In this document: positions 3,019 to 34,165 of the stretch, one piece after another
Layout: every line of letters starts with the position of its first letter
Numbering within the stretch: position 1 is the first letter of the stretch
Origin: Phycisphaerae bacterium
GTDB taxonomy: Bacteria > Planctomycetota > Phycisphaerae > JAAYCJ01
DNA length: 36,317 bases
Assembly (NCBI GenBank): GCA_012514125.1
Contig: JAAZAW010000288.1
Span: 1 to 36,317, forward strand
Direction: 5' to 3'
Made by a program: the position numbers and the translations under genes
Notes under the pieces: generated by a model
The model's database searches: none
What the model saw: the letters and a program-made list of their open reading frames with translations, nothing else
Told to the model about the DNA's origin: nothing

Positions 3019-3131
3019 GCTTGCTTACACTATGTCGCTGAGCTTGTCGAAGCGACATGGTGTAAGCAAACAAAAGACCCTTCGACAGGCTCAGGGTCCG
3101 AAACTACGACACGTTAAAATCAAAGGCATAT
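3019..3131. repeat. Partial, inverted copy of the palindromic MITE/REP-like element family (see 27573-27719)
   Basis: GTAAGCAAACAAAAGACCCTTCGACAGGCTCAGGGTCCGAAACTACGACAC is the reverse complement of the left arm of the 27573 copy. It ends in TTAAAATCAAAGGCATAT, a degenerate terminal repeat. It fills the gap between two convergent genes. Confidence 0.6.
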
Positions 3132-4396
3132 TAGATGTTTATGAACTGACCCAGGGCTTGCCAGGTCAGATCGATCATCGTTGGAGCATATTGATCCGCT
3201 TTATCGCCCCATAGATGAGTCAATAAATCTTTCAAACCGCTTTGCGTCAGTTCGGCTGCGGATTTCGGGAGATGTGGAATCGGTTCTTTGAAGGTGTCCT
3301 GCCGTTTGATCATCGAGAGGACGCCCGCTGCGGCGCCCAAAGCCATATTCTTCGGCTCGATCCGATATCGCAACGCCAGGCGAATCGTGCCGTAAATGCG
3401 ATCGTCGTAGCTTAGTTTGCGGATATGGTCGCGTCCCACGCGGCTGACCAGGTCGTTGAGGTTTGGATTGACCATGCGTTCGAGCAGGTCATCGGCGTAG
3501 GCTTGATAGCCTGCGGGAGTAAAGAGGGAATCGCCGAGTTGGGCGTGACGCTGGATCAGGGCGGCTCCGGATTCTTCGATGAACGCTTTTCTCGCGATAG
3601 CCATGATTTGCGTATCATGGCCGGCATCCGCGATGGTATTTAAATTTTTCTGGTCGGCCAGATAGGCGATCAGGGCATGGATGGCGTTATGGCCATAAAG
3701 TTTGGCTTCTTCAAACGGCAGAAGGTCCGGTTTTTCGATGAATACTTCAATGCCACGTTTGTAGTCGGGCAGGGTGATCTTCGAAATGAGGATGCGGTTG
3801 AATTCTTCGACCAGTATTGCCCGGGGGAAGTGGGGCGTGATGGTTTGCAGGTTGAGACGTCTGATTTCATCCACATCGGTAATCACGCCGCTCATTTTGC
3901 CGACGACGGTGTTGAGGACCTGCACCTGGTTGAGTTTTTCCGGTTCCATTCGCTGTTTCAGGAGATCGGTCAAAATTTCGGCTGCGTGGTTATGATTTTC
4001 GGCGGTGTAGATAATCGTCGGAAACTCGTTCGGCCGCTGTGAAAGGCCTTTGGCAAAAAGGTCCGCGCAGCTTGGATCGCCCAAACTAAAGATATTCACG
4101 CTCGGAAGGGCGGTGGCCATTTCGTCCGATTCGGCAATGGCGGCGAGGATTTTTTTTCGATCATCGACGTCTCGTGGGTTATAAAGTTCGACACCTTTGA
4201 CGACGCTGTGGTCGATTTTATTGTTTCTTGCGATATTGACGGTGTAAGATCCGCCGTTGCTTCGGACCGCGTCGATCATGGCCTGATCGACTTCCGCTAC
4301 GACGAAGCGTTTGAAATTTTTCGACATATATGCTTCATAAAGCATAAGTGCGTTCTGAATCGGTCCGAATCCAAATCCAAAAAACGTTTTGTTCAT
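3131..4396 (-). CDS. Mannitol-1-phosphate 5-dehydrogenase (MtlD) family polyol-phosphate dehydrogenase
   Basis: Recalled MtlD blocks align: IIYTAENH (IIACENM), EAKLYGHNAIHALIAYLA (ERKLFTLNTGHAITAYLG), FIEESGAALIQRH, and NPNLNDLVSRVGRDHIRKLSYDDR ([24 protein letters not shown]). I prefer the ATG at 4396 (AGGAAT RBS) over the GTG at 4435 in the ORF track. Confidence 0.65.
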   Translation of the reverse strand: MNKTFFGFGFGPIQNALMLYEAYMSKNFKRFVVAEVDQAMIDAVRSNGGSYTVNIARNNKIDHSVVKGVELYNPRDVDDRKKILAAIAESDEMATALPSVNIFSLGDPSCADLFAKGLSQRPNEFPTIIYTAENHNHAAEILTDLLKQRMEPEKLNQVQVLNTVVGKMSGVITDVDEIRRLNLQTITPHFPRAILVEEFNRILISKITLPDYKRGIEVFIEKPDLLPFEEAKLYGHNAIHALIAYLADQKNLNTIADAGHDTQIMAIARKAFIEESGAALIQRHAQLGDSLFTPAGYQAYADDLLERMVNPNLNDLVSRVGRDHIRKLSYDDRIYGTIRLALRYRIEPKNMALGAAAGVLSMIKRQDTFKEPIPHLPKSAAELTQSGLKDLLTHLWGDKADQYAPTMIDLTWQALGQFINI

Positions 4397-4483
4397 TGTT
4401 ATATTCCTGAAATTTTGTCGGGTGCGTTTGGCCACACCATTTTTTCTTTCAAATTGTCATTTTCGTGAAAGAGGGAATCGGTT

Positions 4484-5767
4484 TTATCGCAAATTATTCT
4501 CGAGGAACTCGATTTCCTTTGTTTGATCCCAGTGATCGACGAATCGCAGATCATCGATATCCGTGCCCGGATAGAGGATGACCTTGCCGTCCACTTTGGT
4601 TTCTTCGATCATTTTAAGCACTTGCGGGGCGTGTTTGAGCGATCCGACGCCTGCGACGTAATTGCCCGGATCGACGTCTTTGTTGTAAATGGCGTCGAGG
4701 GTGGATTTCATGTCGTAGGGGTCCCCGCCGCTTGAGCCTGCGACTTTGATTTCATTGTAGTGGATCGCGATGGCATCGATTTGCAGCATATTTTTACCCT
4801 TCGGGAGTCCGCCGAAGAAATTCGCCACGCCGCCTTTGCCTAAAAGTCCCAGTGCGTTTTGTTGTACGGGTTGAACCCCGACGGCGAGGATGATATCGTC
4901 GGCACCGGCACCGTTGGTGATCTTCATGAGTTCTTCGTTAAGGTCTTTTCCGTTGATGGCGAAAAGATTGATGCCGAGTTTTTTCGCTTTTTCCGCGTTG
5001 GTTTTGAGTGCGTGATCCATGCGTTCCTGAACGAGGTCGGAAATAATCAGATTTTTCGGACGATATCGCATCGCCATCTCAAAGTGGATTCGTCCCATCG
5101 CGCCTGCACCGATGACGACGGCAGTGCCGCCTGGAAGGAGTCCGAGTTTGGGGACACGCGGCGAGAAGGGCCCATCTTTGAAAATATGATATTGCCGATC
5201 CTGAGCCGAGTAGATACATGAGATCGGTTCGGCCATTGAAACACCAAAATACGACATTGAATCGTCGGGCAAGGGCAAGAGACACTGACCTTGAAGGACT
5301 TCTTCCTGGATTAAAATATATTCCGCCAGATTGCCGCCGAGGGTATAACCGACGGCACATTTGCTCATGCCTGCGGCATTGTTTGCATATCGTTCGCGAT
5401 GGCAGATCGGAGCAACATCGACGGCGGGTTGAACCGCGAAGCGCTGTCCGGGTTTGTATTGATTTTTAAGATTATCGCCGACGGCTGCGACGGTGACCGA
5501 ACCTTCATCGCCGAGGATAACGGGAAATTTTTCCAGGTCCCAGCCGTTGATGTAGGTGTGTTTTGAACCCTGCGAAATGATTTTAAGGATCGAAGTACAG
5601 ACTCCTGCGGCATCGACTCGGCAGAGCAGTTGATTCGGCCCGGGCTGGGGTACGGGCACTTCGGAAACCTTCAGGTTTTCGAACCCCACGCCGTTTAGTG
5701 TGACGGCTTTCATGGTTTTGGGAATTTGAAATTCCTTTTGATTACGATAATTCTCAAATTTGTTCAT
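4484..5767 (-). CDS. Medium-chain dehydrogenase/reductase (Zn-ADH/polyol dehydrogenase-like) with an altered metal motif
   Basis: 427 aa. GroES-like N-domain (RVDAAGVCTSILKI), Rossmann motif VVIGAGAMGR, AAGGAT RBS before the ATG at 5767. The canonical GHE motif reads GDE here. Confidence 0.75.
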   Translation of the reverse strand: MNKFENYRNQKEFQIPKTMKAVTLNGVGFENLKVSEVPVPQPGPNQLLCRVDAAGVCTSILKIISQGSKHTYINGWDLEKFPVILGDEGSVTVAAVGDNLKNQYKPGQRFAVQPAVDVAPICHRERYANNAAGMSKCAVGYTLGGNLAEYILIQEEVLQGQCLLPLPDDSMSYFGVSMAEPISCIYSAQDRQYHIFKDGPFSPRVPKLGLLPGGTAVVIGAGAMGRIHFEMAMRYRPKNLIISDLVQERMDHALKTNAEKAKKLGINLFAINGKDLNEELMKITNGAGADDIILAVGVQPVQQNALGLLGKGGVANFFGGLPKGKNMLQIDAIAIHYNEIKVAGSSGGDPYDMKSTLDAIYNKDVDPGNYVAGVGSLKHAPQVLKMIEETKVDGKVILYPGTDIDDLRFVDHWDQTKEIEFLENNLR

Positions 5768-5830
5768 GATTTATCCTTCATAGAGAAATGTTATCGGTTT
5801 TTATGCAGGATGGTCCATGCCCATTATCTT

Positions 5831-5858
5831 CCCGCAGTCTGTAGTCTGTGGCCTGTAG
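5831..5858. repeat. Four-unit heptamer array (CCCGCAG TCTGTAG TCTGTGG CCTGTAG)
   Basis: 7-nt periodicity read directly, located just 3' of the KpsF-like stop codon (minus-strand sense). Confidence 0.45.
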
Positions 5859-5864
5859 TCATTC

Positions 5865-6827
5865 TCAGGTGATTCCCGCCCGGGTAATATCGTGCAGGTG
5901 GATCATGCCGATCGGGTGATGAGATTCGTCGCAGACCGGCAATTCGATAATCTTGTATTCGCGTAAAATTTCCAATGCTTTTACAGCCATCATATCCGGA
6001 GTGGCGAATTTGGGATTTTTTGTCATCAGGCCGGTGATTGGCTCGTCGAGATTGACTTGGCCTTTCATCAGATATCGCCGTAAATCGCCGTCGACGAAAA
6101 TGCCCACGAGACTGCCGGATTGATCGATGACGCTGGTGGCGGCGAGTTTGCTCGACGTCATGACGAGAATCGCATCACGAAGTTTTGTGTCGTCTCGCAC
6201 GACGGGATTGTCTTTGCCCGTGTGCATCAGGTGTTCGACTTTGATCAACAGCCTGCGCCCAAGCGAACCGCCCGGATGGAGCAGGGCGTAATCGTTTTGT
6301 TTAAAACCGTGAGCTTCGAGCAACACCAACGCCAGTGTGTCGCCGAGGGCGAGCATGGCCGTCGTGCTCGCTGTCGGAGCTAAATCCAATGGGCAGGCTT
6401 CACGTTTGATCGGCAGGATCAGGGAAATATCCGAATGCCGGGCAAGCTCCGAATCAGCGTTGGAGGTGATGGCGATCAAGGGGACCTTGAGATGTTTAAA
6501 ATAAGGAATGATACGCAGCACTTCGTCCGTTTGTCCTTGGTGCGAGAAAAACAGGCCGATGTCGTTTGCGGTGATCATCCCCAAGTCGCCGTGAATCGCC
6601 TCGGCAGGGTGCATGAAAAAAGCGGGTGTTCCGGTCGATGCCAGGGTCGCGGCAATTTTTTTCGCGATGTGCCCCGCCTTGCCCATACCGGTCGTGACGA
6701 CTCTGCCCTTACAGTTAAGAATGAGATTAATTGCCCGCTCGAACTCCGAATCGATGACATGGTGCAGACAGGCCACCGCGTCGGTTTCGATATCGATTAC
6801 TCGTTTTGCGATATTGATCAAATCCAT
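5865..6827 (-). CDS. KpsF/GutQ-family sugar-phosphate isomerase (SIS domain plus tandem CBS domains)
   Basis: 320 aa. GRVVTTGMGKAGHIAKKIAATLASTGTPAFFMHPAEAIHGDLGMI is the hallmark arabinose-5-phosphate isomerase SIS block, and a C-terminal CBS pair is present. Confidence 0.85.
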   Translation of the reverse strand: MDLINIAKRVIDIETDAVACLHHVIDSEFERAINLILNCKGRVVTTGMGKAGHIAKKIAATLASTGTPAFFMHPAEAIHGDLGMITANDIGLFFSHQGQTDEVLRIIPYFKHLKVPLIAITSNADSELARHSDISLILPIKREACPLDLAPTASTTAMLALGDTLALVLLEAHGFKQNDYALLHPGGSLGRRLLIKVEHLMHTGKDNPVVRDDTKLRDAILVMTSSKLAATSVIDQSGSLVGIFVDGDLRRYLMKGQVNLDEPITGLMTKNPKFATPDMMAVKALEILREYKIIELPVCDESHHPIGMIHLHDITRAGIT

Positions 6828-6871: not shown

Positions 6872-8566
6872 TTATTCGGCGACTTTCAACAATTCTTCTT
6901 CCGCCGCTTTTGTCCAGCCGCCCTGGTCGAGCTTGGCCGCAACGGTTGGAAATTTCTCGGCAAGTTTTGCCAATGGCACCAAGCCTAGTTCATGAAGCAT
7001 CGGATAGACGATAATTTTACCTGCCAGTGTTCGATTTTCAACCGCCGCCAGACCTTCGACCGCTCCGGCCATACCGCAAATCGCATCGACCGAAACGTTC
7101 GTGTCTAACTGACCTTTTTCGATTTTCGAGAGAACAATTTTCATGTCGCGAATGACCGAACCGCTCGTACCGAACATATAGCAACGATTGGCGATATACG
7201 TATCGAGGTCCAGCGCCTGTTTTACCGGAGCCGGAATTCCCGCGAAAATGTTGATTAGACATCGATCGACGCTGTCGGTAATGGCATTGGCGACCAGGGC
7301 GCCCACCGGTGCCATCAACGCGATATAACTGAATTTTTCATTCATCGGTGTTTTTTGCGGGTTGATCATACGAACCTGAACACCGTTGGATTTGGCCAGC
7401 GGCTCGGCCTTATTCATCAACGACGCCAGTCGCGCATCGTCGAAATCCGTTCCTGTCAGCGATACATTTTTCACACCGGCGCAAATATCGCGGATCACGT
7501 GCATTTGTCCCATCGGACCGCCGGCACCGATCACAACAATTTTTTCGCCTTCGCGAATTTCGCCGGTGGCGGGAATGTGTTTGTACGATTCCGCCGCGTT
7601 TTCCGACGTTGTGCCGATCCATCGCGTCATGCCGTAATGTACTCGACCGACGCCGATGATTACCGGTTCGCCGAATTTCTTCCCGCCTGTCACAAGGTTC
7701 ATCAAACCTCTGGGCGCAAGCTTGTCGTTCAGAATTTCCACCGTCGCCTTGACCGCTCCGAAGTAAATGATATCGTCGAAACTTTCATTCGCCAATAATT
7801 CAACTGAACCGACTTTCGCGACCTTCACGCCAATAGTTTCAAGTTCTTTAAATTGTGAAGCATCGGCAACAACCGCAGTAATCGCCGCCGGTTTGTTCGT
7901 CGCAACGGCGTCTTTTAACCCTTCGACTCGATGTCCAGCCTCTGCCACAACCAGCATCCTGCCGCCCGATTTCACACACTGGCGTTCAGGATTCACATAC
8001 GAATTTTCCACACACGCCCAAGGTTCGACCAGGCAAACCGCCGACGCACTGAGTCCTTCACCCACCGGGATCAAAAATCGTTCCGATGTTTTCGGGTCCA
8101 TAACAACGCGTTCATCCATCAAAACATATTCTTGCAGCGCGCCCTCAAAGTTATATCCAAACGCCGCGTTCGATCCAGCCGTTTTCAGTTCTCGATAATC
8201 CGTCTGAACCAGACATCGTTCACCAAGCTTGTGATGCCTGACCTCATCGCCGACCGCCACGATCGTGCACACCGCCTCATGCCCCGGAACCACAGGCTTA
8301 TCTCCCGGAACATAACTCGGAATTTCCTTAAGCACGTCCGGCGAAATACCGCTGACGATCTCACTCTTTCGCGCATGCTCGGTAAATTGCTTGAGCAGTT
8401 TCAAATCGGAAAAACACAATCCCACCGCCTCGATCTTCGCCACAATCTGATGCGGGCCGGGCTTGAAAACCTCTTTCACCTTGTTCAGCGTCAATTCGCT
8501 CGGACCCACCAATTGAACCGCGTATTGTGTCTTCGGGAGTTCTGCTAAATTCGTGTTCATCATCAT
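6872..8566 (-). CDS. MDR-superfamily Zn-dependent dehydrogenase with an extra inserted domain (564 aa)
   Basis: N-terminal ADH_N-like region (EAVGLCFSDLKL, PVVPGHEAVCTIVAVGDEV). A canonical GxGxxG (VVIGAGGPMGQ) appears only about 340 residues in, after an insert lacking the glycine motif. Three consecutive ATGs at the start. Confidence 0.7.
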   Translation of the reverse strand: MMMNTNLAELPKTQYAVQLVGPSELTLNKVKEVFKPGPHQIVAKIEAVGLCFSDLKLLKQFTEHARKSEIVSGISPDVLKEIPSYVPGDKPVVPGHEAVCTIVAVGDEVRHHKLGERCLVQTDYRELKTAGSNAAFGYNFEGALQEYVLMDERVVMDPKTSERFLIPVGEGLSASAVCLVEPWACVENSYVNPERQCVKSGGRMLVVAEAGHRVEGLKDAVATNKPAAITAVVADASQFKELETIGVKVAKVGSVELLANESFDDIIYFGAVKATVEILNDKLAPRGLMNLVTGGKKFGEPVIIGVGRVHYGMTRWIGTTSENAAESYKHIPATGEIREGEKIVVIGAGGPMGQMHVIRDICAGVKNVSLTGTDFDDARLASLMNKAEPLAKSNGVQVRMINPQKTPMNEKFSYIALMAPVGALVANAITDSVDRCLINIFAGIPAPVKQALDLDTYIANRCYMFGTSGSVIRDMKIVLSKIEKGQLDTNVSVDAICGMAGAVEGLAAVENRTLAGKIIVYPMLHELGLVPLAKLAEKFPTVAAKLDQGGWTKAAEEELLKVAE

Positions 8567-8579
8567 TCCTTTTCGTTTT

Positions 8580-10634
8580 CTATTTCAACATAACCTGACC
8601 ACCGGTGACGGGAATCGCCTGGCCGGTTTCATATTTCTGTTCCATCAAATAATAAATCGCCTTCATCACATCCGGCGTCGTGCATCCACGTTTCATTGGA
8701 ACTTTCGCCTCATACGCCTTTTTCACGTCTTCCACCGTCTGGGCTCCAGGCACTTTGTTCGTCCGAAGATACTGCATAAAAAGTCCGTTCTTCGGATCAG
8801 ACCACAACGGCCCGTCAAAAAAATTCCCCGGACAAATCGAGTTGACCTTGATGCCGTCCTCCACCAATTCCATCGCGAACGATTGCGTCAATCCGATCCC
8901 GCCGAACTTGCTGCCCGCATACGCACCGTTCCGGTTCGACCCCTGCAGCCCCGATTTCGAGTTGATCTGAATGATGTCGCTCCAATAGTCAGGCTTTGCC
9001 TGGTGCTGAATCGCCAACGTCCGTGACGCTTTTTGCACGCACAGGAAATACCCCTTGTAATTCACATTCGTTACAAAGTCAAAATCTTTTTCAGACTGCG
9101 TCTTGACGCTCTCCGCCTTGAGCACGCCCGCGTTCGACACAAAAACGTCGAACCCCCCAAAGGTCCGATTCACCTGATATATCGCATTGTCAATCGACAG
9201 CGCGTCGGTCACATTAATCGGCAGCCCCAGCGCCCTGCCCGGCGTCTTGCTGTTGATCTCCCGAGCCGCTTTTTCCGCGCCGATCAGATTCATGTCCGCC
9301 AGCACCACATGCGCCCCCTGCGCCGCCAAATCCTGCGCAATCTCAAGTCCAAACCCCTGCGCCGCGCCGGTCACAATGGCAATCTTGCCCGCCGCACGTC
9401 CCAAATGCCCACTGCCCGCCGCCACCTTGCGACGATAAGACTCGACCTCCCAGTTCTCAATAAATTCCCGCTCGCGTTTCCCCATGAAATTAATTCCACC
9501 AAGCCGCTTCGCGCCGGACATCACCTTCACCGCATCGGTATAAACCAATCGAACCGTGTGCGCCGACATAAAATCGTCGCCCGCCGCAAACATTCCAAGG
9601 TCCTTCACCAACACAACATACGGCATCTGCCCCGTCATCTTCCGGTGCTCCGAAACCGCCTCTCTAAGCCGTTCCACAAGCTGCTCCGGCGTCTCGCCTT
9701 CCTGCGTCTCAAACCACATCGCAAACGATTTGCAATAAACAATCTGGTCCGGCGTCAACGGGCCGCCCGCCGCCACCGCTTTGCCTTCGGTTCCGCCAAC
9801 CAGATTGATGATCGTCTTCGAATCGTCAAAGGTAACCACCTTGAGCGCATCTTCAACCGCCAGCAATCCTCGAAGCGCAGGCCCGATCGTATGAACCAGC
9901 ACCTTCGTTTCCTGCTCGTCTTTTTGCGACCACTCGCCGAAAACAAACTCCGACGGTGTGCTCTCAAGTTTCGTGCGAATCGTGCCGATCACCGCGTCCG
10001 TCGCCTTGAAAATGTCCTCCGGCGTATCTCCGCAAATAATCAACCCATGATTCTGCATAAACACCGCGCCCGGACAATCCCGCCCCGTCTTCTGCTGATA
10101 TTCCCGAAACGCGTCATAAAGCGTCTTCGCCAGCAGATACCCCGGATCGACATACGGAATCCACAAAACCTTGTCATCGAAAAGTTCCGTCGTCAATGCC
10201 TTTCCATACTTACAGCAGGTAATCATATTCACCAGCGTCGAATGCGAATGAATCACGAATTGCCGCGGCAGCAGATGATGCAGCACCGCCTCCACCGAAG
10301 GCCTTTGTCCTTTTTCCGGATAAACCCGCGCGTTCATGATCACCTGTTTGAAGTGTGCCTCACGCTGATTGATATCCAGCGGCACTTCACCCTGAATCAG
10401 TGTTTCGAGAGGCTTGCGTTCCATCGCCACAAATCCTTCCGCACTGATCGTCGCCAGCGAGGTCCCGCTCCCTTTAACAAAAAGTCGATCCCCGATTTTC
10501 ACCGACGTATTCCCACCGCCTGCGATAACAAATTCCGGGTCCGATCCAAAATATCGTGAAAGTTTCACCAACTGATCCATCGCGCTATCCGACGAATCAA
10601 ATCCAGGCCGTTGCACCGCAGCAGACGTCATCAC
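8580..10634 (-). CDS. Bifunctional class II aldolase/adducin-domain plus short-chain dehydrogenase fusion (YuxG/RhaEW-like)
   Basis: 684 aa. The N-terminal half has aldolase_II character (GGGNTSVK, HSHS). The C-terminal SDR has IAIVTGAAQGFG and a YAGSK catalytic motif. AAGGAG RBS upstream; the start is GTG at 10634 or ATG at 10631. Confidence 0.8.
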   Translation of the reverse strand: MMTSAAVQRPGFDSSDSAMDQLVKLSRYFGSDPEFVIAGGGNTSVKIGDRLFVKGSGTSLATISAEGFVAMERKPLETLIQGEVPLDINQREAHFKQVIMNARVYPEKGQRPSVEAVLHHLLPRQFVIHSHSTLVNMITCCKYGKALTTELFDDKVLWIPYVDPGYLLAKTLYDAFREYQQKTGRDCPGAVFMQNHGLIICGDTPEDIFKATDAVIGTIRTKLESTPSEFVFGEWSQKDEQETKVLVHTIGPALRGLLAVEDALKVVTFDDSKTIINLVGGTEGKAVAAGGPLTPDQIVYCKSFAMWFETQEGETPEQLVERLREAVSEHRKMTGQMPYVVLVKDLGMFAAGDDFMSAHTVRLVYTDAVKVMSGAKRLGGINFMGKREREFIENWEVESYRRKVAAGSGHLGRAAGKIAIVTGAAQGFGLEIAQDLAAQGAHVVLADMNLIGAEKAAREINSKTPGRALGLPINVTDALSIDNAIYQVNRTFGGFDVFVSNAGVLKAESVKTQSEKDFDFVTNVNYKGYFLCVQKASRTLAIQHQAKPDYWSDIIQINSKSGLQGSNRNGAYAGSKFGGIGLTQSFAMELVEDGIKVNSICPGNFFDGPLWSDPKNGLFMQYLRTNKVPGAQTVEDVKKAYEAKVPMKRGCTTPDVMKAIYYLMEQKYETGQAIPVTGGQVMLK

Positions 10635-12052: not shown

Positions 12053-12093
12053 TTTGATAATTTCAGTTTCGAGTCATCCTCTTTCTGTCATTT

Positions 12094-12163
12094 CCTCTCT
12101 TCTCTTGTCATTCCCGCGAAGGCGAGAATCCAGAACCGGCTCAAGCCGTTAAACAATCCTCTT
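12094..12163. repeat. Intergenic repeat, copy 1: ...TTCTCTTGTCATTCCCGCGAAGGCGAGAATCCAGAACCGGCTCAAGCCGTTAAACAATCCTCTT
   Basis: About 64 nt matching 13826-13892 with 5 mismatches by eye. Contains two small hairpins (ATTCCCGC..GCGAGAAT and CCGGC-TCAA-GCCG). Confidence 0.8.
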
Positions 12164-12171
12164 TTCTTCTC

Positions 12172-12227
12172 TTCCAACTTCCAACTTCCAACTTCCAACT
12201 TCCAACTTCCAACTTCTAACTTCTAAC
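12172..12227. repeat. Heptamer tandem array (TTCCAAC)x6 (TTCTAAC)x2; GTTGGAA/GTTAGAA on the transcribed minus strand
   Basis: Counted directly, 8 contiguous 7-nt units. The last unit contains the TAG stop of lpd (12223-12225). Confidence 0.95.
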
Positions 12228-13641
12228 TCCCCACAACTATCTTCATCACCTTTCTGGGCGGCTGATGCAAACACATCCCAAACACATCCTCCGCCGATTC
12301 CTTGATCCCTTCACTCATCGTCGGATGCGCAAAAACCACTTCCGCCAATTCCGTCGCGCTCGCCTTCTGGTGCAGCATCGCTCCTGCCGCCGCGATACAC
12401 TCCGTAGCGTTATGCCCCATCATGTGCACACCCAGCAATTCATCCGTCTCCCGATTTCGAATCACCTTCACAAACCCTTCCGTATCGCCCGCTGCCATCG
12501 CCTTGCCCAGAAATGACAACGGAAAATGGCCGATCGACACCGGAATGTTCTTCGCCTTGCATTCTTCCACCGACAATCCCACCGATCCGATCTCCGGGAA
12601 CGTATAAACACATCCCGGAATCGGCGAGGTAAATGCCTTCGAATGCCCCAGCGCGTTTTCAACCGCAGCGATCCCCTGCGCCGATGCCGCATGCGCCAGC
12701 AAACATCTCCCATTCGCGTCCCCGATACAATAATAACCCTTCACTGCCGTTTCCATATGATCGTTCACGCGAATAAATCCGCGATCCGTCGCCAGACCAA
12801 CGGTCTCAAGCCCGATCTCCGCCGTATTAGGCCGCCGTCCCGTCGCCACCAGTGCCTTATCCGCTTCGATCACTTCGCCATTACTAAGCTTCGCCCGAAC
12901 GCCCGTCGCCGTCGTCGTCAATTCCTCAATCTTCACATTCACATAACTCTTGATCCCGCGTTTCGCGAAACTCTTTTCCAGCGTATCCCCAAGCTGCTTG
13001 TCCATATTCGGCAGCAGGTAAGGCAGCATCTCCACAATCGTCACTTTTACCCCGAAAGGCTCCATCATGCACGCGAACTCGCACCCGATCACTCCGCCCC
13101 CGACAATCAGCAAACTCTTGGGCAGCGTCTTCCAGTGCAGCGACTCATCGCTCGTGCAAACCTTCTCCACATCCGTAGGCCACCCCGGAATCCTCGCCGG
13201 AATCGACCCAACCGCCAGAATAATCTTGTCTGCGGTGAATTCTTCCGACTCACCGTTCTCTTTTTTGACAACAACTTTCCCCACACCATTCAAGCTCGCC
13301 TTGCCTTGAAACAGCGTCGCCTTCCGTGCCCCAAGCAACCCCTTAATCCCCGTGCGCAGTGTACTGACAACCTTATCCTTGCGAGCCTGAACCCTGCCCC
13401 AGTCAAAACCAACCACACCGTCGATATTGACCCCAAAATCGTCGGCATGTTTGAGATGATCCATCAATCCCGCCGACGCCAGAAGCGCCTTCGATGGAAT
13501 GCACCCATAATTCAAGCACGTCCCGCCCAGATAATGCTTTTCGACGATAGCGACCTTCGCTCCCATCGCCGCCGCCCTTAGTGCCGCAACGTACCCGCCA
13601 GGCCCCGCACCCAACACCGCAATATCAAAATTTTTACTCAT
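12223..13641 (-). CDS. lpd: Dihydrolipoyl (lipoamide) dehydrogenase, E3 component
   Basis: FAD motif VLGAGPGGY and redox disulfide GGTCLNYGCIPSK. The ATG at 13641 is preceded by an AGAGGA RBS. The 17-codon upstream extension in the ORF track is probably not translated. Confidence 0.9.
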   Translation of the reverse strand: MSKNFDIAVLGAGPGGYVAALRAAAMGAKVAIVEKHYLGGTCLNYGCIPSKALLASAGLMDHLKHADDFGVNIDGVVGFDWGRVQARKDKVVSTLRTGIKGLLGARKATLFQGKASLNGVGKVVVKKENGESEEFTADKIILAVGSIPARIPGWPTDVEKVCTSDESLHWKTLPKSLLIVGGGVIGCEFACMMEPFGVKVTIVEMLPYLLPNMDKQLGDTLEKSFAKRGIKSYVNVKIEELTTTATGVRAKLSNGEVIEADKALVATGRRPNTAEIGLETVGLATDRGFIRVNDHMETAVKGYYCIGDANGRCLLAHAASAQGIAAVENALGHSKAFTSPIPGCVYTFPEIGSVGLSVEECKAKNIPVSIGHFPLSFLGKAMAAGDTEGFVKVIRNRETDELLGVHMMGHNATECIAAAGAMLHQKASATELAEVVFAHPTMSEGIKESAEDVFGMCLHQPPRKVMKIVVGS

Positions 13642-13825
13642 AATTTTTTCCTCTTTCTCTGATAAGGTGAGCTTTACCCACCATCTTTTCATTTTCGATC
13701 TTCGTCGTTCTTCTCTATCCCGTCACCCAATAAAGCCCGAATCCTTTGAGACTATTAGGACTGCCTTTTCTGTGAACTCTATCGCTGATTTCCTGTCATC
13801 CCCTCTCTTTATATCTTTATTCCCT

Positions 13826-13892
13826 TTCTTCTCTTGTCATTCCCGCGAAGGCCCGAATCCAGAAACGGCTCAAGCCGTTGAATAATCCTCTT
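13826..13892. repeat. Intergenic repeat, copy 2 of the GTCATTCCCGCGAAGGC...GGCTCAAGCCGTT family
   Basis: TTCTCTTGTCATTCCCGCGAAGGCCCGAATCCAGAAACGGCTCAAGCCGTTGAATAATCCTCTT, to be compared with 12094-12163. Confidence 0.8.
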
Positions 13893-13894
13893 CT

Positions 13895-13937
13895 CCACCT
13901 TCACACTTTCACACTTTCTCACTTTTACACTTCTTCC
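13895..13937. repeat. Short-period (7-9 nt) array CCACCTTCACACTTTCACACTTTCTCACTTTTACACTTCTTCC
   Basis: Read directly. A related array in the opposite orientation occurs at 31536-31576. Confidence 0.6.
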
Positions 13938-13976
13938 TCGTCTTAGCGTCCAGGCAGTTCAATCTCTTTTCTTCTC

Positions 13977-14004
13977 TTCCAACTTCTAACTTCTAACTTC
14001 TAAC
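13977..14004. repeat. Heptamer array TTCCAAC (TTCTAAC)x3 overlapping the E2 stop codon
   Basis: Counted directly. The E2 TAG stop (14000-14002) lies inside the last unit. Confidence 0.9.
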
Positions 14005-15886
14005 TCTTTCCTTCTCCTATCCCATTCGGACTTTCCAGCATCTCTTTCAACCTGACCATAAACTTCGCTGCCAGCATCCCATCCACAATCCGATGATCCG
14101 CGCTCAGCGTCATTGTCATCACTCGTCCAGGCCGCATCGCACCGTTGCTCACGATCACCTGCTCGCGAATTGCTCCAACCGCTAGAATCGCCGCCTCAGG
14201 CGGATTGATAATCGCCGAAAATTCTTCCACGCCGAACATCCCCAGATTGGTAATCGTAAAGACTCCCTTGCCCATCCCCTCGATCTTCCCGCCGCGAGCC
14301 GCGTTCGCGATGCGTTTGGTCTCCGCGCTGATCTGTTCCAGATTCATCTGTTCCGCTCCAAGCAGCACCGGCACAACCAAACCCTCGTCCATACCCACCG
14401 CCACGCCGATATTCGAATTCGCGAACTCGACAATCGCGTCGTTATCCATTTGACTGCGGAACGCCGGAAATTCCTGTATCGCCTTCGCGCACGCCAGCAC
14501 CACCACATCGTTCACACTGCACGGATATTTCGCCTTTTCCGCTTTATAAAATCGATAAAGCGGATCGGCGTCGATCGTACTCTTGATATAAAAATGCGGA
14601 ATATTCTGCTTCGACGCCAGCAAATTCCTCGCAATCGCTTTTCGCATGTTCGACATCCGTTTGCGAACGCCTTCACCCGAAACAACAGGCATTGCCGCCG
14701 GTGCCGGTCGATACGCACCCGCAGCACCCGCCGCCGGAACATCCGTCGACAAAATTCGGCCGCCCGGACCGCTCCCCGTCGCCACCGTCGATAAATCCAC
14801 ACCCCGTTCCTTCGCGATCTTCCGCGCGGCAGGAGACGCCTTGACTCGCCCGCCCTCGCTGGCTGTCGGTTGGCTCACAGCCGCCTTCGCCGTTATTACC
14901 GGAGCCGTCTCTACAGGAACAGCCTTCGTCCCCGTCGCCGCGACCGTACTGCTCGCCAGATATCTCTCGACATCCACATCGTTTTCCGCAAGATACGCCA
15001 CAGGTTGCAACACCTCGATCGTCCCGCCTTCCGGCAGCACAATTTTCGAAAGTCGCCCCTCATCCACCGCTTCGACTTCAATCGTCGCTTTGTCGGTTTC
15101 AATCTCAAAAATGATATCGCCTTTTTTGATCCGATCCCCGGGCTTGACTCGCCAGCTGACAATCGTGCCTTCTTCCATCGACTGGCCTGCCTTGGGCATC
15201 AAAATCGGCGTAATACTTGTCGGCATTTCCACCGCCGCCGGTGCCGTCGAAGGAGCGGCAGGGGCCTGAGTCTCCGAAGTCGAGGCACCACCGGCACTTG
15301 TCGAACCCGACCCGCCCAGAAACGCATCGACATCGGCGTCGTTTTCCGCCAGATAAGCCACAGGCTGTAATACAGGAATCGTATCGCCTTCAGCCACAAT
15401 GATTTTAGCTAATCGTCCCTCATCCACCGCTTCGACTTCGACCGTCGCCTTGTCGGTTTCAATCTCAAAAATGATATCGCCTTTTGTAATCCGGTCCCCG
15501 GGCTTGACTCGCCAGGTGACAATCGTGCCTTCTTCCATCGACTGGCCCGCCTTGGGCATCAGCACCGGCACGACATTAGCCGCGTTGCCCCCCGCGCCGG
15601 TGGGGGGCGGTGCAGAAACTTCCTCTTTTTTCGATTCAGGAGTCATTATTTTTCCTGGATTGATTTCGCAAAGCGGTGTATCGGTTTCCACCGTCTTTCC
15701 GGTAGGGACTAAAATGGTCTCGAGGGTTCCGTCCAAACCAGATTCAAGGTCAATCAAGCCTTCATCACTTTCTATGCGAAGAAAAATTTCCTCTTTGGAA
15801 ATAACATCACCCGTTTTTTTCAACCAGGAAATAATTGTTGCCTTTGTTGCCGATTTTCCCGGTTTGGGCAGTTTGATTGTCGTCAT
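14000..15886 (-). CDS. Dihydrolipoamide acyltransferase (E2) with one degenerate and two canonical lipoyl domains, a PSBD and a catalytic domain
   Basis: Two EIETDKAT lipoyl motifs, a peripheral subunit-binding domain (ASPAARKIAKERGVDL), and the catalytic DHRIVDG. The ATG at 15886 has an AGGTGA RBS 7 nt upstream; an alternative GTG is at 15895. Confidence 0.9.
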   Translation of the reverse strand: MTTIKLPKPGKSATKATIISWLKKTGDVISKEEIFLRIESDEGLIDLESGLDGTLETILVPTGKTVETDTPLCEINPGKIMTPESKKEEVSAPPPTGAGGNAANVVPVLMPKAGQSMEEGTIVTWRVKPGDRITKGDIIFEIETDKATVEVEAVDEGRLAKIIVAEGDTIPVLQPVAYLAENDADVDAFLGGSGSTSAGGASTSETQAPAAPSTAPAAVEMPTSITPILMPKAGQSMEEGTIVSWRVKPGDRIKKGDIIFEIETDKATIEVEAVDEGRLSKIVLPEGGTIEVLQPVAYLAENDVDVERYLASSTVAATGTKAVPVETAPVITAKAAVSQPTASEGGRVKASPAARKIAKERGVDLSTVATGSGPGGRILSTDVPAAGAAGAYRPAPAAMPVVSGEGVRKRMSNMRKAIARNLLASKQNIPHFYIKSTIDADPLYRFYKAEKAKYPCSVNDVVVLACAKAIQEFPAFRSQMDNDAIVEFANSNIGVAVGMDEGLVVPVLLGAEQMNLEQISAETKRIANAARGGKIEGMGKGVFTITNLGMFGVEEFSAIINPPEAAILAVGAIREQVIVSNGAMRPGRVMTMTLSADHRIVDGMLAAKFMVRLKEMLESPNGIGEGKS

Positions 15887-15895
15887 GTCGTTCAC

Positions 15896-16082
15896 CTGTG
15901 TTTGTTAAATAAACAATATAGTAGTTAAATTTAGGTATTTCAAACTATTCCGATTATACTTCACGTCAGAATAAAAAAAAAGTGTGCAACAGTCAAGCAA
16001 AAATATACATTTTTATGTTGATATTTATGCTCATTTGTTGTTTATTATATGTACAGTGTTGATTGATCTGTGGAGGTTTAGC
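15896..16082. promoter_or_regulatory. AT-rich divergent control region between E2 and the DeoR regulator
   Basis: 187-bp AT-rich gap between divergent starts. It holds several TTGTT/AACAA and ACAT-N4-ATGT inverted motifs. No sigma-54 consensus is present, and I cannot assign a specific operator. Confidence 0.4.
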
Positions 16083-16847
16083 GTGAATACGCAAGAGCGT
16101 CGAGAATACATATTGTCGCAAGTCTATGCCAGCGGGCATGTTATGGTCAAAGACCTTTCCGCGTCCATGGCAGTGTCCGAAGCGACGGTTCGACGTGATT
16201 TGCGCGCTTTAGCGGACGAACGCGAGCTTGAACTCGTCTACGGCGGAGCGAACCTGGCGAGAAGCTCCGATTTCTCCTTCCGTTCCAAGGCGATGCGGAA
16301 CATTGAAGCCAAGCGAATCATCGGGCGTCTGGCGGCGGACCTCGTGCTTGATGGAGACCAGATTTTTATCGATTCAGGGACCACCTGTTTCGAGATGGCT
16401 CCTTTTATGAAACGGAAACGCGGCGTTTCGGTGATTGTTAGTTCGTCGCGTCTGGCGATTGAATTGGCTGATAATTCTAATTTAAGCATTATAACATTGG
16501 GTGGACAGTATCGTCTGGACCGGATGGACTCCGTCGGGCCTTTGGCGATGACGGTGCTGGACCAACTTCGCGGGTATATCGCCTTTATTGGTTCCGACGG
16601 CGTGAGTATGGATTTTGGGATTACCGCCAGCGATATCGAGAGCGCGCATTTGCACAAACTGGCGGTGCGGAACGCTCGCGAGACGATTTTGCTTGTAGAT
16701 CATACTAAGTTTTTCTCACCTTCACTTTATAAGATTGCGGAGTGGGATGTGGTGTCGCGATTGGTGACGGATCAGAAGCCCGGGCCTGAGTGGATGGAAT
16801 TTCTGGATTCGCGAGGGATCGAGGCGATTTATCCGGCGGAAAGTTAG
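16083..16847 (+). CDS. DeoR-family transcriptional regulator (N-terminal HTH plus sugar-phosphate-binding DeoR C-domain)
   Basis: EYILSQVYASGHVMVKDLSASMAVSEATVRRDLRAL is a typical DeoR HTH. GTG at 16083 with a GGAGG RBS 6 nt upstream gives a family-typical 254 aa. The upstream extension from 15984 is AT-rich and hydrophobic-looking. Confidence 0.85.
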   Translation: MNTQERREYILSQVYASGHVMVKDLSASMAVSEATVRRDLRALADERELELVYGGANLARSSDFSFRSKAMRNIEAKRIIGRLAADLVLDGDQIFIDSGTTCFEMAPFMKRKRGVSVIVSSSRLAIELADNSNLSIITLGGQYRLDRMDSVGPLAMTVLDQLRGYIAFIGSDGVSMDFGITASDIESAHLHKLAVRNARETILLVDHTKFFSPSLYKIAEWDVVSRLVTDQKPGPEWMEFLDSRGIEAIYPAES

Positions 16848-16877
16848 AAATTGGAAGTTTAGTGAGTTTGGTGATTT
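16843..16877 (+). repeat. Degenerate heptamer array GTTAGAA ATTGGAA GTTTAGT GAGTTTG GTGATTT starting in the DeoR stop codon
   Basis: Read directly. deoR ends ...GAA AGT TAG AA, the same AGT-TAG-AA junction seen at E2 and lpd. Confidence 0.5.
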
Positions 16878-16959
16878 TGGTAAAGAGGAAGAGTTTTTTT
16901 GTTCGATCATTAATTTAATTTGTCTATAACCTCATATTAAGGATAAGGAGTTTTCAGTC

Positions 16960-19431
16960 ATGCCCAAGAGTCAGATGATCAATCCGGAAGATGTTCGTAA
17001 ACCGTCAAAGGTTGAATTTAAACCTGTTCCGGTGAATCAGTACAAAAAGACCGTTAAAGAAGAACTTTCGCGTTACAGCAAAGACGATATGGTCCGCATC
17101 CAGCGGGATATGATGGTGATTCGCGCCTTTGAGAATATGCTCAACGAGATTAAGCTTCGCGGGAATTACCAGGGGATCGAATATAATCATCGAGGTCCGG
17201 CACACTTGTCGATCGGTCAGGAAGCATCGGCGGTGGGTCAGGCGTTTTTGCTGGGGGTGGACGATCATATTTTCGGCAGCCATCGCAGTCATGGTGAAAT
17301 CCTCGCTAAAGGTCTCTCCGCCATCGAGAAGCTTGATGACAAGACTTTGATGGACGTCATGAAGAATTATTTCGATGGAGAATGTTTGAAGGTTGTCGAA
17401 AAGGACGCCAGCGGTTCTGTGAAAGATTTGGCTATTGATTTTTTGATCTATGGCGCGCTGGCGGAGATATTTGGACGAAGGGCCGGCTTTAACAAGGGGA
17501 TGGGCGGTTCGATGCACACCTTTTTCCCGCCGTTCGGTATTATGCCCAACAACGCCATTGTCGGTGGTTCGGGTACGATTTCGGTCGGAGCGGCCCTTTA
17601 TAAACATATCAATCGGAAGAAGGGGATTGTGATTTGCAATATCGGCGATGCGTCGCTGGGTTGCGGTCCGGTGTGGGAGGCGTTGTGTTTGGCGACGATG
17701 GACCAGTATCGTGAGCTTTGGGACAAGGACCATCGGGGCGGGTTGCCGATGATTTTCAATTTTTATAATAATTTTTATGGTATGGGCGGTCAGCCTGTGG
17801 GCGAGACGATGGGGTTCAAGGTTCTGGCAAGGCTTGGTGCGGGGATTATGCCGAACCAGATGCACGCGGAGCGGGTGGATGGATTTAATCCGCTGGCGGT
17901 GATCGACGCGATCGAGAGGAAGAAGAAATTAATCGAGGAGAAGGACGGGCCTGTGTTGCTCGATACGATTACGTATCGGTTCAGTGGTCACTCTCCTTCG
18001 GACGCGAGTTCTTATCGGGAGAAGTCGGAGATCGAGATGTGGCAGAATCAGGATTCGATTGTCACCTTCGGGAATGAGCTGGTGAATGCGAAGGTTTGCC
18101 AGAAGTCGGATATCGAGAAGATGCAGGAGCGGATCGACGGGTTGATTTTGAAGGCCTATAAGAAGGCGATTGATTTGGAGATTTCGCCGCGATACGACCT
18201 CAAGCAGAAAGATAGTTTGCTGGAAAAGACGATGTTCTCGAATTTGAGGATTGAGTCGATGGACACGACGCGCAAGCCTGAGGTTTTGATGGCGAAGGAA
18301 GAGAACCCGCGGGTTATTCAGTTGTCCAAGCGCAGCAGGAGCGGGTTCGATGAGAACGGGGCGAAGCTGCCCAAGAGCAAGTGCATCGGTATTCGCGACG
18401 CGATTTTTGAAGCGATGATCGACCGGTTTTATATCGATCCGACGATGGTGGCGTATGGGGAAGAGAATCGCGACTGGGGCGGTGCGTTTGCGGTATATCG
18501 CGGATTGACCGAATCGTTGCCTTATCATCGGTTGTTTAATTCGCCGATTTCCGAGGCGGCGATTGTGGGTTCGGCGTGCGGTTATGCGATGGAAGGTGGG
18601 CGCGTGGTTTGCGAACTGATGTACTGCGATTTTATGGGCAGAGCGGGGGATGAGATCTTCAACCAGATATGCAAGTGGCAGTCGATGTCGGGCGGATTGT
18701 TGAAGATGCCGCTGGTCCTTCGGGTGTCGGTGGGTTCGAAGTATGGTGCGCAGCATAGCCAGGACTGGACGGCATTGGCGGCGCATATTCCGGGCCTTAA
18801 AGTTCTGTTCCCGGCGACACCTTATGACGCGAAGGGACTTTTGAACGCGGCATTGGTTGGGACGGATCCGGTAATTTTCTTTGAGAGTCAGCGGATTTAC
18901 GATCAGCCTGAAGAGTTTGTCAAGGGCGGAGTTCCGACGGGATTTTATGAAGTTCCGATGGGCGAGCCTGATGTCAAGAAGGAAGGCAAGGATTTGACGA
19001 TATTGACGATAGGTGCGACGTTGTATCGGGCGTTGGAGGCGGCGAAGACACTGGAAGAGAAATACGGTGTGAGCTGCGAAGTGATCGACGCTCGTTCGAT
19101 AGTGCCGTTTAATTATGAGAAGGTGATTGTCTCGGTGAAAAAGACCCGCAAGATTTTGCTGGCCAGCGACGCGTGCGAACGGGGCAGTGTGCTTCAGACG
19201 ATGGCGGCGAAGATTTCGCAGTTGGCGTTTGACGAGTTGGACGCGCCGCCTGTGGTGGTGGGGGCGCGTAATTGGATCACGCCGCAGGATGAAGTGGAAG
19301 ACGCGTTTTTCCCGTATCCGGTTGATGTGATCGACGCGGTACATGAGCATATTTTGCCGCTTAAGGGTTATACCGTGAGCAGAGATTGCTCGAACGCGGA
19401 TTTTGTACGGCGATATAAACAGGGTGTTTAG
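16960..19431 (+). CDS. Fused E1 alpha-beta component of a 2-oxoacid/acetoin-type dehydrogenase complex (ThDP-dependent)
   Basis: 823 aa. The N-half is E1-alpha-like ([19 protein letters not shown]...NFYNN ThDP motif). After a roughly 70-aa linker, the C-half is E1-beta-like ([12 protein letters not shown], ...GAQHSQD...). AAGGAG RBS. Confidence 0.85.
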
Positions 19432-34149: not shown

Positions 34150-34165
34150 TGAAAGTGGAAGATCG

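Follow-up and report, generated by a model that had tools for sequence, protein, structure and literature searches.

Why would a complete 2-oxoacid dehydrogenase complex be placed in a sugar operon under a DeoR-family regulator? This question is raised by a stretch of DNA of 36,317 nucleotides from a Phycisphaerae bacterium (NCBI GenBank assembly GCA_012514125.1, contig JAAZAW010000288.1, positions 1 to 36,317), hereafter the window, in which the gene for an E2 acyltransferase heads a long minus-strand gene string and diverges from the genes for a DeoR-family regulator and a fused E1 alpha-beta enzyme of the thiamine diphosphate (ThDP)-dependent type (E1ab). To our knowledge, 2-oxoacid dehydrogenase complexes within a DeoR-repressed sugar operon are uncommon. 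Behind E2, the long arm encodes the E3 dihydrolipoyl dehydrogenase, a 429-aa protein that we call PHP-like, a class II aldolase fused to a short-chain dehydrogenase/reductase (SDR), a 564-aa zinc-type medium-chain dehydrogenase/reductase (MDR564), a KpsF/GutQ-family sugar-phosphate isomerase (KpsF), a second medium-chain enzyme of 427 aa (MDR427), and an MtlD-like protein. Here, we report that this region is one conserved DeoR-controlled divergon, i.e., a deoR-E1ab arm facing a long operon from E2 to the MtlD-like gene, and we read it, with a probability of about one half, as the lower part of a pathway for L-rhamnose or another 6-deoxyhexose close to it, which is controlled by an RhaR-like DeoR protein and has its own complex of the pyruvate dehydrogenase (PDH) type. 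A preliminary description had listed the ten genes in this order and had not recognised the combination as a described pathway; Pfam and NCBIfam confirm all ten with the domains given there (start codons were slightly corrected), and full-text searches of the literature directed at the cluster yielded no account of it.

The closest known chemistry is that of RhaEW, an aldolase-SDR fusion shown experimentally to convert L-rhamnulose-1-phosphate to dihydroxyacetone phosphate (DHAP) and L-lactate (Rodionova et al. 2013, PMC3870299). RhaEW regulons stand under the DeoR-family regulator RhaR, and some of them include lactate dehydrogenases, the pathway then reaching pyruvate (PMC3870299). In Planctomycetota and Verrucomicrobiota, the route described for rhamnose and fucose is one in which a bacterial microcompartment (PV-BMC) contains the lactaldehyde, and the DeoR-family regulator PvmA belongs to this system (PMC11958385, PMC8857213).

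Conservation of the gene cluster

An alignment-based scan of representative species genomes for the PHP-like family led to 424 genomes, and the best 80 loci were fetched (loci are cited below by our own numbers). Neighbours were counted by tblastn with the window proteins, only at loci with enough flanking sequence and with the Armatimonadota and one metagenome-assembled genome (MAG) labelled Actinomycetota left out. E2 and E3 lie directly upstream of the PHP-like gene in 41 of 47 assessable loci and the SDR directly downstream of it in 49 of 52; MDR564 is found nearby in 39 of 44, E1ab in 33 of 39, and DeoR in 34 of 39. In these 34 loci, the DeoR orthologues, 50-92% identical, adjoin E1. About half of the loci assessable for it (19/37) have the MtlD-like gene near the PHP-like gene, whereas MDR427 and KpsF are there in 4/37 and 2/37, respectively. 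The conserved core is made up of E1ab, DeoR, E2, E3, the PHP-like gene, the SDR (usually fused to an aldolase) and MDR564, often together with the MtlD-like gene; KpsF and MDR427, previously counted as members of the unit, are add-ons of the window's lineage. The order of the long arm is E2-E3-PHP-like-(aldolase)SDR-MDR564-[KpsF-MDR427]-MtlD-like.

The closest relatives of the window are Phycisphaerae MAGs, and the cluster extends over Planctomycetota (Phycisphaerae, Tepidisphaeraceae, Pirellulaceae, and Planctomycetaceae), Verrucomicrobiota, and Sumerlaeota, with identities to the window of 57-86% for MDR564 and about 57-79% for the SDR domain; the arrangement is shared by both a close and a distant relative (L001 and L002). 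There are two single loci from other phyla, one binned to Acidobacteriota (L068) with DeoR, E2, the PHP-like gene and the fusion, and one binned to Fibrobacteria (L075) that has of the cluster only E1ab, DeoR, and the PHP-like gene. Collecting loci through E1 avoids the ascertainment bias of a search by the PHP-like gene: three of four E1 homologues on long contigs have the PHP-like gene and the fusion, L083 and L085 have the long MDR as well, and one of the four is broken by transposases. The synteny held whether loci were collected via the PHP-like gene or via E1, i.e., the two halves that the preliminary description had tentatively joined do form one unit. A Pfam census of 96 flanking open reading frames (ORFs) gave no further universally conserved neighbour.

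Some loci carry inserted genes. A small gene with a PDDEXK_3 (nuclease-fold) domain sits between the fusion and the long MDR in L083 (1894-2388) and L085 (2237-2620). In L043, from a relative with a complete chromosome, an SMP-30/gluconolactonase-like gene (5442-6395) lies between E2 and E3, and a gene for a beta-helix protein (7853-9973) between E3 and the PHP-like gene.

The aldolase-SDR fusion and its linkage to rhamnose genes

The fusion has PF00596 at residues 21-215 and PF00106 at residues 417-604, which is the RhaEW architecture. Its aldolase domain retains the class II metal and catalytic motifs PSVE, IHSHS, and NHG, which align with those of 3m4r and of the fuculose-1-phosphate aldolase 2opi, and its SDR domain is nearest to sorbitol-6-phosphate dehydrogenase (5o3z, 6e-49).

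Physical linkage to rhamnose genes is seen in relatives. In an Anaerohalosphaeraceae MAG (L069), one strand carries, with short gaps, E2-E3-PHP-like-SDR-MDR564-class II aldolase-rhamnulokinase-RhaA-RhaT-GH78, where the SDR stands alone, RhaT is the rhamnose-proton symporter, GH78 is an alpha-L-rhamnosidase, and DeoR-E1ab is divergent; the RhaB of this locus exceeds its family cutoff (TIGR02627, 571 versus 528). A Phycisphaerae MAG (L064) has the string aldolase-RhaB-RhaA-PHP-like-SDR (RhaB 564 bits; RhaA PF06134, 711 bits) without MDR564, MtlD, or E1/E2/E3, and the SDR domain of the window is 73% identical to the stand-alone SDR of this string. In L020, L058, and L075, rhamnulokinase-like FGGY kinases stand beside the cluster with 343-435 bits, under the cutoff. 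The earlier suggestion that a deoxyketose is split by the aldolase fits these data best, given the RhaEW architecture, the intact residues, and the RhaA, RhaB, RhaT, and rhamnosidase genes in the strings of relatives. The other option named there, that the ThDP complex itself oxidatively cleaves a ketose, is speculative. Neither shell genes nor a PduP-type aldehyde dehydrogenase or PduL are found at the cluster.

The E1/E2/E3 complex

Two of the three components are PDH-like by family thresholds: E2 passes the PDH-E2 equivalog (TIGR01349, 456.2 versus a cutoff of 445), and E3 passes the Lpd cutoff (TIGR01350, 514.6 versus 408.8). The beta half of E1 resembles the 2-oxoacid/PDH E1 beta subunits of Thermus and Geobacillus (E about 1e-56 to 1e-58), and for its alpha half the nearest match is the human PDH E1 alpha subunit (E about 3e-22). 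The fused E1 of about 820 aa, which carries an N-terminal extension, belongs to a small discrete family, the next group of fused E1 proteins (about 640-690 aa) being 33-41% identical in a comparison against a library clustered at 50% identity; within the family, orthologues from different phyla are 71-92% identical to the window E1. The preliminary description had invoked acetoin-type E1 chemistry, but nothing marks the E1 as of this type: its best models are PDH models, although it stays under their cutoffs, and its partners E2 and E3 exceed the thresholds given above. Please note that the NCBIfam AcoC model NF011457 matches E2 only at residues 227-387, i.e., the lipoyl and linker part, and that the libraries hold no AcoA/B model.

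A lipoate-protein ligase (LplA/B) is encoded at or inside the cluster in L004 (15714-16397), L071 (14382-15098), L052 (1-534), and L086 (1874-3422), the last of which also encodes lipoyl synthase there; such genes near the cluster in relatives are consistent with a dedicated lipoylated E2. In databases, E1 and the other cluster proteins go by the names "2-oxoisovalerate dehydrogenase E1 component," "thiamine pyrophosphate-dependent enzyme," "hypothetical protein," and "alcohol dehydrogenase catalytic domain-containing protein."

The PHP-like protein

By sequence, the 429-aa protein has no match in Pfam, NCBIfam, or the PDB. Its 2358 homologues (about 55-83% identity) include none with a functional name, those named being almost all "hypothetical protein," and a single one has a precomputed PF02811 match. 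The AlphaFold model (pLDDT 89.8), however, matches PHP phosphoesterases of the TrpH/YciV type in Foldseek, namely Cv1693 (2yb1), BAD_1165 (3e0f, 3o0f), and RNase AM (9etk), with E values of 4e-9 to 4e-8 and TM scores of 0.68-0.72 on the target, at a sequence identity of 12-16% and with the PHP-like protein about 140 residues longer than these targets. In the family alignment, an N-terminal HxH motif is conserved, and numerous His, Glu, and Asp positions are invariant. The protein is accordingly predicted to adopt the PHP (beta/alpha)7 fold, as judged from the model.

We had considered that the PHP-like protein might be a missing sugar isomerase, from a recurrent pattern of FGGY kinase, aldolase, and a further gene; this was rejected, since L064 and L069 hold a bona fide RhaA beside the PHP-like gene. 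The idea that it is strictly a pathway enzyme lost weight because the gene stands alone in Armatimonadota, also within trp strings. In L059 (7397-11234), the PHP-like gene takes the third place of a trpD-trpC-X-trpF string, and L053 (5944-9223) shares both upstream gene clusters; it precedes trpF in L081 (4245-6651) and follows nadC-birA in L021 (8305-11179). In Armatimonadota, it is found twice between trpC and trpF and once past nadC-birA. This trp setting echoes the old name TrpH of the structural relatives.

MDR564, the MtlD-like protein, and lineage-specific genes

MDR564 retains the zinc ligands (GLCFSD, PGHE) and the Rossmann motif GAGGPMG, and its AlphaFold model (pLDDT 82.6) shows the usual MDR fold, into which an alpha/beta domain is inserted at about residues 203-330. 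The structures retrieved with this model were no more than general MDR folds (threonine, butanediol, sorbitol, and alcohol dehydrogenases) and offered no clue to the substrate. "L-sorbose 1-phosphate reductase" is the name that automatic annotation by JGI gives to some of its homologues, others being called "threonine dehydrogenase-like"; a literature search on sorbose-1-phosphate reductase was not informative. The MtlD-like protein conserves the family motif K-x4-N-x2-H but lies far under the MtlD cutoffs (best model NF002652, 106.8 versus 356), and its best PDB match is 3h2z (5e-20). KpsF passes its family threshold (TIGR00393, 325 versus 203.7) and stays under the KdsD (352 versus 505) and GutQ (313 versus 481) equivalogs; MDR427 is weakly IolM-like.

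The add-ons vary with lineage: KpsF, MDR427, and myo-inositol-3-phosphate synthase (MIPS) in one group, an MDR next to a xylulokinase-like gene in the Pirellulaceae, and elsewhere rha genes or lipoate ligase or synthase. MIPS (TIGR03450, 492 bits, under the cutoff) is encoded at the cluster edge in three Phycisphaerae-type loci, past MtlD in L005 (20067-21218) and L008 (18742-19899) and past E1 in L086 (12702-13862), which are the group with KpsF and/or MDR427 as add-ons.

Control region, spacers, and ends of the unit

The two arms diverge from an AT-rich control region of 196 nt (Table 1) with a predicted, near-consensus sigma-70-like promoter toward E2 (-35 TTGACT, 17-nt gap, -10 TATTCT). 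The promoter core TGCTTGACT is conserved in orthologous regions of several phyla, and AGTCAA occurs in 33 of 42 orthologous intergenic regions, compared with no more than 15 when the sequences are shuffled. The -35 box is overlapped by an imperfect inverted repeat of 20 nt, a candidate operator for DeoR; de novo analysis of the control region found no clean operator consensus but only the conserved promoter and candidate half-sites. The DeoR protein itself has haloarchaeal GlpR as its best NCBIfam match, under the cutoff, and its called homologues are 237-287 aa long.

Within the long arm, the E2-E3 spacer (357 nt) and the E3-PHP spacer (231 nt) stand out. The corresponding junctions of relatives are much shorter, with medians of about 59 and 96 nt, respectively, and lengths of 38 and 13 nt in L002, and we therefore take the long spacers as genome-specific repeat insertions into the operon. 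The E2-E3 spacer holds 4.3 copies of the heptamer GTTAGAA from the TAG stop on, an octamer array, and one copy of a 24-nt motif (GGATTCnnGCyTTyGCGGGAATGA, an 8-bp hairpin, minus strand); the E3-PHP spacer holds 8.3 copies of GTTGGAA, again from the TAG stop, and two copies of the motif. All three motif copies of the window are inside these two spacers, and the motif is absent from all 86 fetched related loci; it is a feature of the window's genome rather than of the system and looks like a small genome-specific repeat element. The preliminary description had noted repeats and hairpins in both gaps without a hairpin followed by a U-run, and this holds, there being neither terminator-like nor promoter-like sites on the coding strand in either spacer; read-through of both gaps is plausible, as had been proposed, in view of this absence and of the short junctions in relatives. 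A structured regulatory RNA in the spacers was considered and dropped, since their folding is no better than that of shuffled sequence (z +0.94 and -0.05). An Rfam scan of the whole window gave no family at gathering score, so that the spacers match no known riboswitch or small RNA.

Terminator-like structures are found at both ends of the unit and none within the operon spacers. Along the minus strand, a non-coding hairpin with a U-run behind it is first met shortly past the MtlD-like gene (about 3066-3099), where region 3020-3135 has a folding z of -4.19 and a REP-like inverted pair forms an 18-bp hairpin after the U-run (end region 3021-3099). The strong plus-strand hairpin behind E1, which ends the DeoR-E1 arm, heads the list of terminator-like sites.

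Proposed pathway and its alternatives

In the scheme that we favour, L-rhamnulose-1-phosphate, formed by RhaA and RhaB encoded elsewhere, would relieve DeoR repression at the shared promoter region. The aldolase domain would split the ketose-1-phosphate into DHAP and L-lactaldehyde, and the fused SDR domain would immediately oxidise the toxic L-lactaldehyde to L-lactate, as in RhaEW. An NAD-dependent step, for which MDR564 is a candidate, may then lead to pyruvate, and E1ab/E2/E3 would convert pyruvate, including that derived from DHAP, to acetyl-CoA. Gene content, synteny, the promoter, the catalytic motifs, and the physical linkage to rhaA, rhaB, rhaT, and rhamnosidase in relatives are the observations behind this scheme, from which we infer the substrates, the DeoR effector, and the roles of MDR564, the MtlD-like, and the PHP-like proteins.

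A number of points weigh against the scheme. The fusion scores under the RhaEW equivalog cutoffs (TIGR02632, 317.2 versus 567.75; NF006189, 274.8 versus 634), its aldolase domain is just 30-35% identical to the stand-alone aldolases beside rhaB/rhaA, and the PDH-PHP-SDR-MDR564 core is kept in nine loci that lack an aldolase domain altogether. A rhamnulokinase-like gene is present in just 5 of the 80 loci (about 60 of them outside Armatimonadota), and genes for RhaA, RhaB, or a transporter are absent within 10 kb of the cluster in the window and in the majority of relatives. The best NCBIfam models of E1, PDH E1 alpha of the y-type and PDH E1 beta, both remain under their cutoffs (TIGR03182, 181.8 versus 393.85; NF006667, 232.8 versus 321), as do all other E1 models. 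There is no recognisable lactate dehydrogenase in the cluster, and the scheme needs neither the MtlD-like nor the PHP-like gene. The activity of the latter may be general rather than pathway-bound, because the gene stands alone, without PDH or sugar gene neighbours, in all 19 Armatimonadota loci, trp strings included. Other add-ons, i.e., MIPS in L005, L008, and L086 and the xylulokinase-like gene with an MDR in Pirellulaceae, point elsewhere.

Could the complex simply be a general PDH? In this rather unlikely but serious alternative, a central-carbon regulator of the GlpR/DeoR type would govern a general PDH accompanied by variable sugar-phosphate and polyol dehydrogenases, with rha genes as one add-on among others and no single pathway. 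The PDH-type cutoffs passed by E2 and E3, the PDH models nearest to E1, the very strong conservation of E1 across phyla, the GlpR match of DeoR, the lineage-dependent add-ons, and the occurrence of the PHP-like gene also in housekeeping-type contexts are all in its favour. However, the same four or five non-PDH genes keep the same order across phyla, which is unexpected for unrelated passengers, and a sugar-phosphate repressor over a sole PDH would be unusual. The cluster is moreover found in MAGs binned to Anaerohalosphaeraceae, Sumerlaeota, and Fibrobacteria, which are mainly anaerobes and typically use pyruvate:ferredoxin oxidoreductase or pyruvate formate-lyase. The order conserved with tight spacing over dozens of loci in at least three phyla also bears on the null explanation that a complex of the PDH or branched-chain 2-oxoacid dehydrogenase (BCKDH) type abuts an unrelated sugar operon by chance, whose sole point is that the window has no kinase or transporter; it is rejected because the arrangement recurs across phyla, and we regard it as extremely unlikely.

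The anaerobic lineages and the loci without an aldolase domain would be accommodated by a non-aldolytic, lactaldehyde-free route, which we nevertheless consider improbable, in which E1ab/E2/E3 is acetoin-dehydrogenase-like rather than a PDH and the methyl end of the deoxyhexose becomes acetyl-CoA. MDR564, acting like SorE, would reduce the 6-deoxyketose-1-phosphate; the SrlD-like SDR or the MtlD-like enzyme would oxidise the penultimate carbon on the methyl side, so that a 1-deoxy-ketose phosphate with an acetoin-like CH3-CO-CHOH end arises; and the complex would cleave it into acetyl-CoA and a tetrose phosphate. Such a route accounts for all three types of hexitol-phosphate dehydrogenase (MDR, SDR, and MtlD) beside a ThDP/lipoyl complex, acetoin-type complexes occur in anaerobes, and the E1, which is under the PDH cutoffs, forms a discrete family with an N-terminal extension; if it were true, the PHP-like protein would be a new pathway enzyme. 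On the other hand, the L064 string contains only aldolase, RhaB, RhaA, PHP-like, and SDR genes and fits the canonical aldolase route, L-rhamnose would by stereochemical reasoning give L-erythrose-4-phosphate, which has no obvious fate, and the name SorE comes from automatic annotation only. We also give little credence to the view that KpsF, MDR427, and the MtlD-like enzyme of the window's lineage, together with MIPS of its relatives, are a separate polyol, inositol, or pentose-phosphate module appended to the core. KpsF and MDR427 are confined to a close clade, MIPS lies past MtlD in two loci and past E1 in a third, MDR427 is weakly IolM-like, and MDR427 and MtlD occur together in L041 and L086; yet Verrucomicrobiota and Pirellulaceae also have the MtlD-like gene, with neither KpsF nor MDR427 beside it, and no terminator-like site separates MDR564 from the downstream genes, which are probably co-transcribed with the core. 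The deoxyhexose pathway with its own PDH-type complex is the reading that we retain.

Other features of the window

The window appears to be an entire metagenomic contig, and Table 1 collects the coordinates. Among the larger ORFs of the window, Pfam detects no kinase, component of the phosphotransferase system (PTS), or transporter, as the preliminary description had said; the statement does not extend to the relatives, several of which carry a kinase or transporter. The flanks of the cluster (DegT aminotransferase, sigma-54 activator, ADP-ribosylglycohydrolase, tyrosyl-tRNA synthetase, FtsK, and CheB/CheR) show no link to it. The sigma-54-dependent activator is convergent with the operon end and is not kept beside the cluster in L001 and L002; activators of this type (AcoR) are the typical control of acetoin operons. 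The window also encodes an ordinary second PHP-domain protein and a PocR-GAF-SpoIIE phosphatase.

E3, E2, and DeoR all terminate with AGT TAG, the TAG stop opening a heptamer array (GTTAGAA or GTTGGAA, up to 8.3 copies), and arrays of 7-8-nt units also occur in other intergenic regions of the contig. The REP-like element CTGAGCYTGTCGAAGGG is found six times in the window compared with 0.15 expected, and two inverted pairs of it form long hairpins between convergent or adjacent genes. GC skew tracks the coding strand very strongly, with values of about -0.25 to -0.39 in the minus-strand gene stretch at 8-15 kb and of +0.2 to +0.33 over plus-strand genes, indicating that the coding strands are markedly richer in G than in C.

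Table 1. Genes, control elements, and repeats of the window, with positions counted from its first nucleotide
Feature	Positions	Strand	Basis or remark
MtlD-like (mannitol-1-phosphate 5-dehydrogenase-like)	3131-4435	minus	likely start ATG 4396
MDR427, MDR dehydrogenase, 427 aa	4484-5767	minus	Pfam
KpsF/GutQ-family sugar-phosphate isomerase	5865-6827	minus	SIS and 2 CBS domains; Pfam and TIGR00393
MDR564, zinc-type MDR dehydrogenase, 564 aa	6872-8566	minus	Pfam detects the ADH_N domain only
Class II aldolase-SDR fusion	8580-10634	minus	Pfam
PHP-like protein, 429 aa	10702-11991	minus	predicted fold; no Pfam match
E3-PHP spacer	11992-12222	minus	231 nt
E3 dihydrolipoyl dehydrogenase	12223-13642	minus	likely start ATG 13642; ORF reaches 13692
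E2-E3 spacer	13643-13999	minus	357 nt
E2	14000-15886	minus	Pfam: three lipoyl domains, E3-binding domain, 2-oxoacid_dh catalytic domain
Divergent control region	15887-16082		AT-rich, 196 nt; between E2 and DeoR
Predicted promoter, -35 box	15996-15991	minus	toward E2
Predicted promoter, -10 box	15973-15968	minus	toward E2
Imperfect inverted repeat	15987-16006 / 16021-16040		20 nt; candidate DeoR operator
DeoR-family regulator	16083-16847	plus	PF08220 HTH_DeoR and PF00455 DeoRC; ORF opens at 15984; likely start GTG 16083 with GGAGG upstream
Fused E1 alpha-beta, ThDP enzyme, 823 aa	16960-19431	plus	Pfam: E1_dh, Transket_pyr, Transketolase_C
Terminator-like hairpin	19566-19593	plus	12-bp stem, T-rich tail to 19603
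24-nt hairpin motif	12027-12050, 12108-12131, 13837-13860	minus	8-bp hairpin
Heptamer array GTTGGAA x8.3	12171-12228		E3-PHP spacer
Heptamer array GTTAGAA x4.3	13976-14005		E2-E3 spacer
Heptamer array	16845-16881		end of DeoR
Other 7-8-nt arrays	5836-5860, 30506-30544, 31535-31568, 36002-36102		intergenic
CTGAGCYTGTCGAAGGG, inverted pair	3038-3054 / 3078-3094		end of the long arm
CTGAGCYTGTCGAAGGG, inverted pair	27610-27626 / 27650-27666
CTGAGCYTGTCGAAGGG, other copies	23006-23022, 35977-35993
Sigma-54-dependent activator	1592-2986	plus
PHP-domain protein, 267 aa	30604-31407	minus	PF02811; adjoins CheR/CheB
PocR-GAF-SpoIIE phosphatase	34073-35941	plus

Relation to known systems and implications

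The RhaEW/RhaR regulon of Chloroflexus and Bacillus subtilis (PMC3870299) shares with our cluster the aldolase-SDR fusion, a DeoR-family regulator, and, in relatives of the window only, the linkage to rhaA/rhaB/rhaT; its lactate dehydrogenases are a precedent for a step toward pyruvate. In contrast, the fusion of the window is under the equivalog cutoffs, rhaA, rhaB, and rhaM are missing from the window, and the cluster embeds a complete E1/E2/E3 besides PHP-like, MDR564, and MtlD-like proteins that have no counterpart in described rha regulons. With the alpha-proteobacterial and mitochondrial PDH of the heterotetrameric-E1 type, the complex has in common the passed E2 and E3 cutoffs, an E2 with several lipoyl domains, and E1 domains nearest to PDH/BCKDH structures; it differs by an E1 whose alpha and beta parts make up a single chain of 823 aa, extended at the N terminus and scoring under the cutoffs, by the position under DeoR in a sugar operon, and by the placement of E1 on the arm opposite to E2 and E3. 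A ThDP/lipoyl complex in a catabolic operon, its presence in anaerobes, and acetyl transfer are also features of the acetoin dehydrogenase system (AcoA/B/C/L), but E1 has no specific sequence signal to AcoA/B, the AcoC model covers only the lipoyl/linker part of E2, and the sigma-54 activator beside the cluster is not conserved in relatives.

The PHP-like protein shares the predicted fold, the HxH motif and, in Armatimonadota, the trp association with PHP phosphoesterases of the TrpH/YciV type (RNase AM; Cv1693, a 3',5'-bisphosphate nucleotidase), from which its low sequence identity, its greater length, the missing Pfam PHP match, and its fixed position between E3 and the SDR set it apart. 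The PV-BMC meets the same toxic L-lactaldehyde problem on the same sugars in the same phyla, with PvmA as its DeoR-family regulator; our cluster would instead handle the aldehyde by a cytosolic fused dehydrogenase, and the carbon would leave as acetyl-CoA via the lipoyl complex.

We rate the cluster as an RhaEW/RhaR-type deoxy-sugar regulon extended by a dedicated complex of the 2-oxoacid dehydrogenase type and three uncharacterised conserved enzymes, a testable lead and not a solved pathway. Three highly conserved uncharacterised families, i.e., the PHP-like protein, MDR564 with its inserted domain, and the MtlD-like protein, gain a testable context, and this system is probably the true place of thousands of database proteins that now go by the names "2-oxoisovalerate dehydrogenase E1" or "hypothetical." Plant and algal polysaccharides have rhamnose and fucose among their major constituents, and Planctomycetota and Verrucomicrobiota are key degraders of them. 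If our reading is true, the cluster would be a widespread cytosolic alternative to the microcompartment, which is the only described route in these phyla, and it would alter genome-based predictions of deoxy-sugar use.

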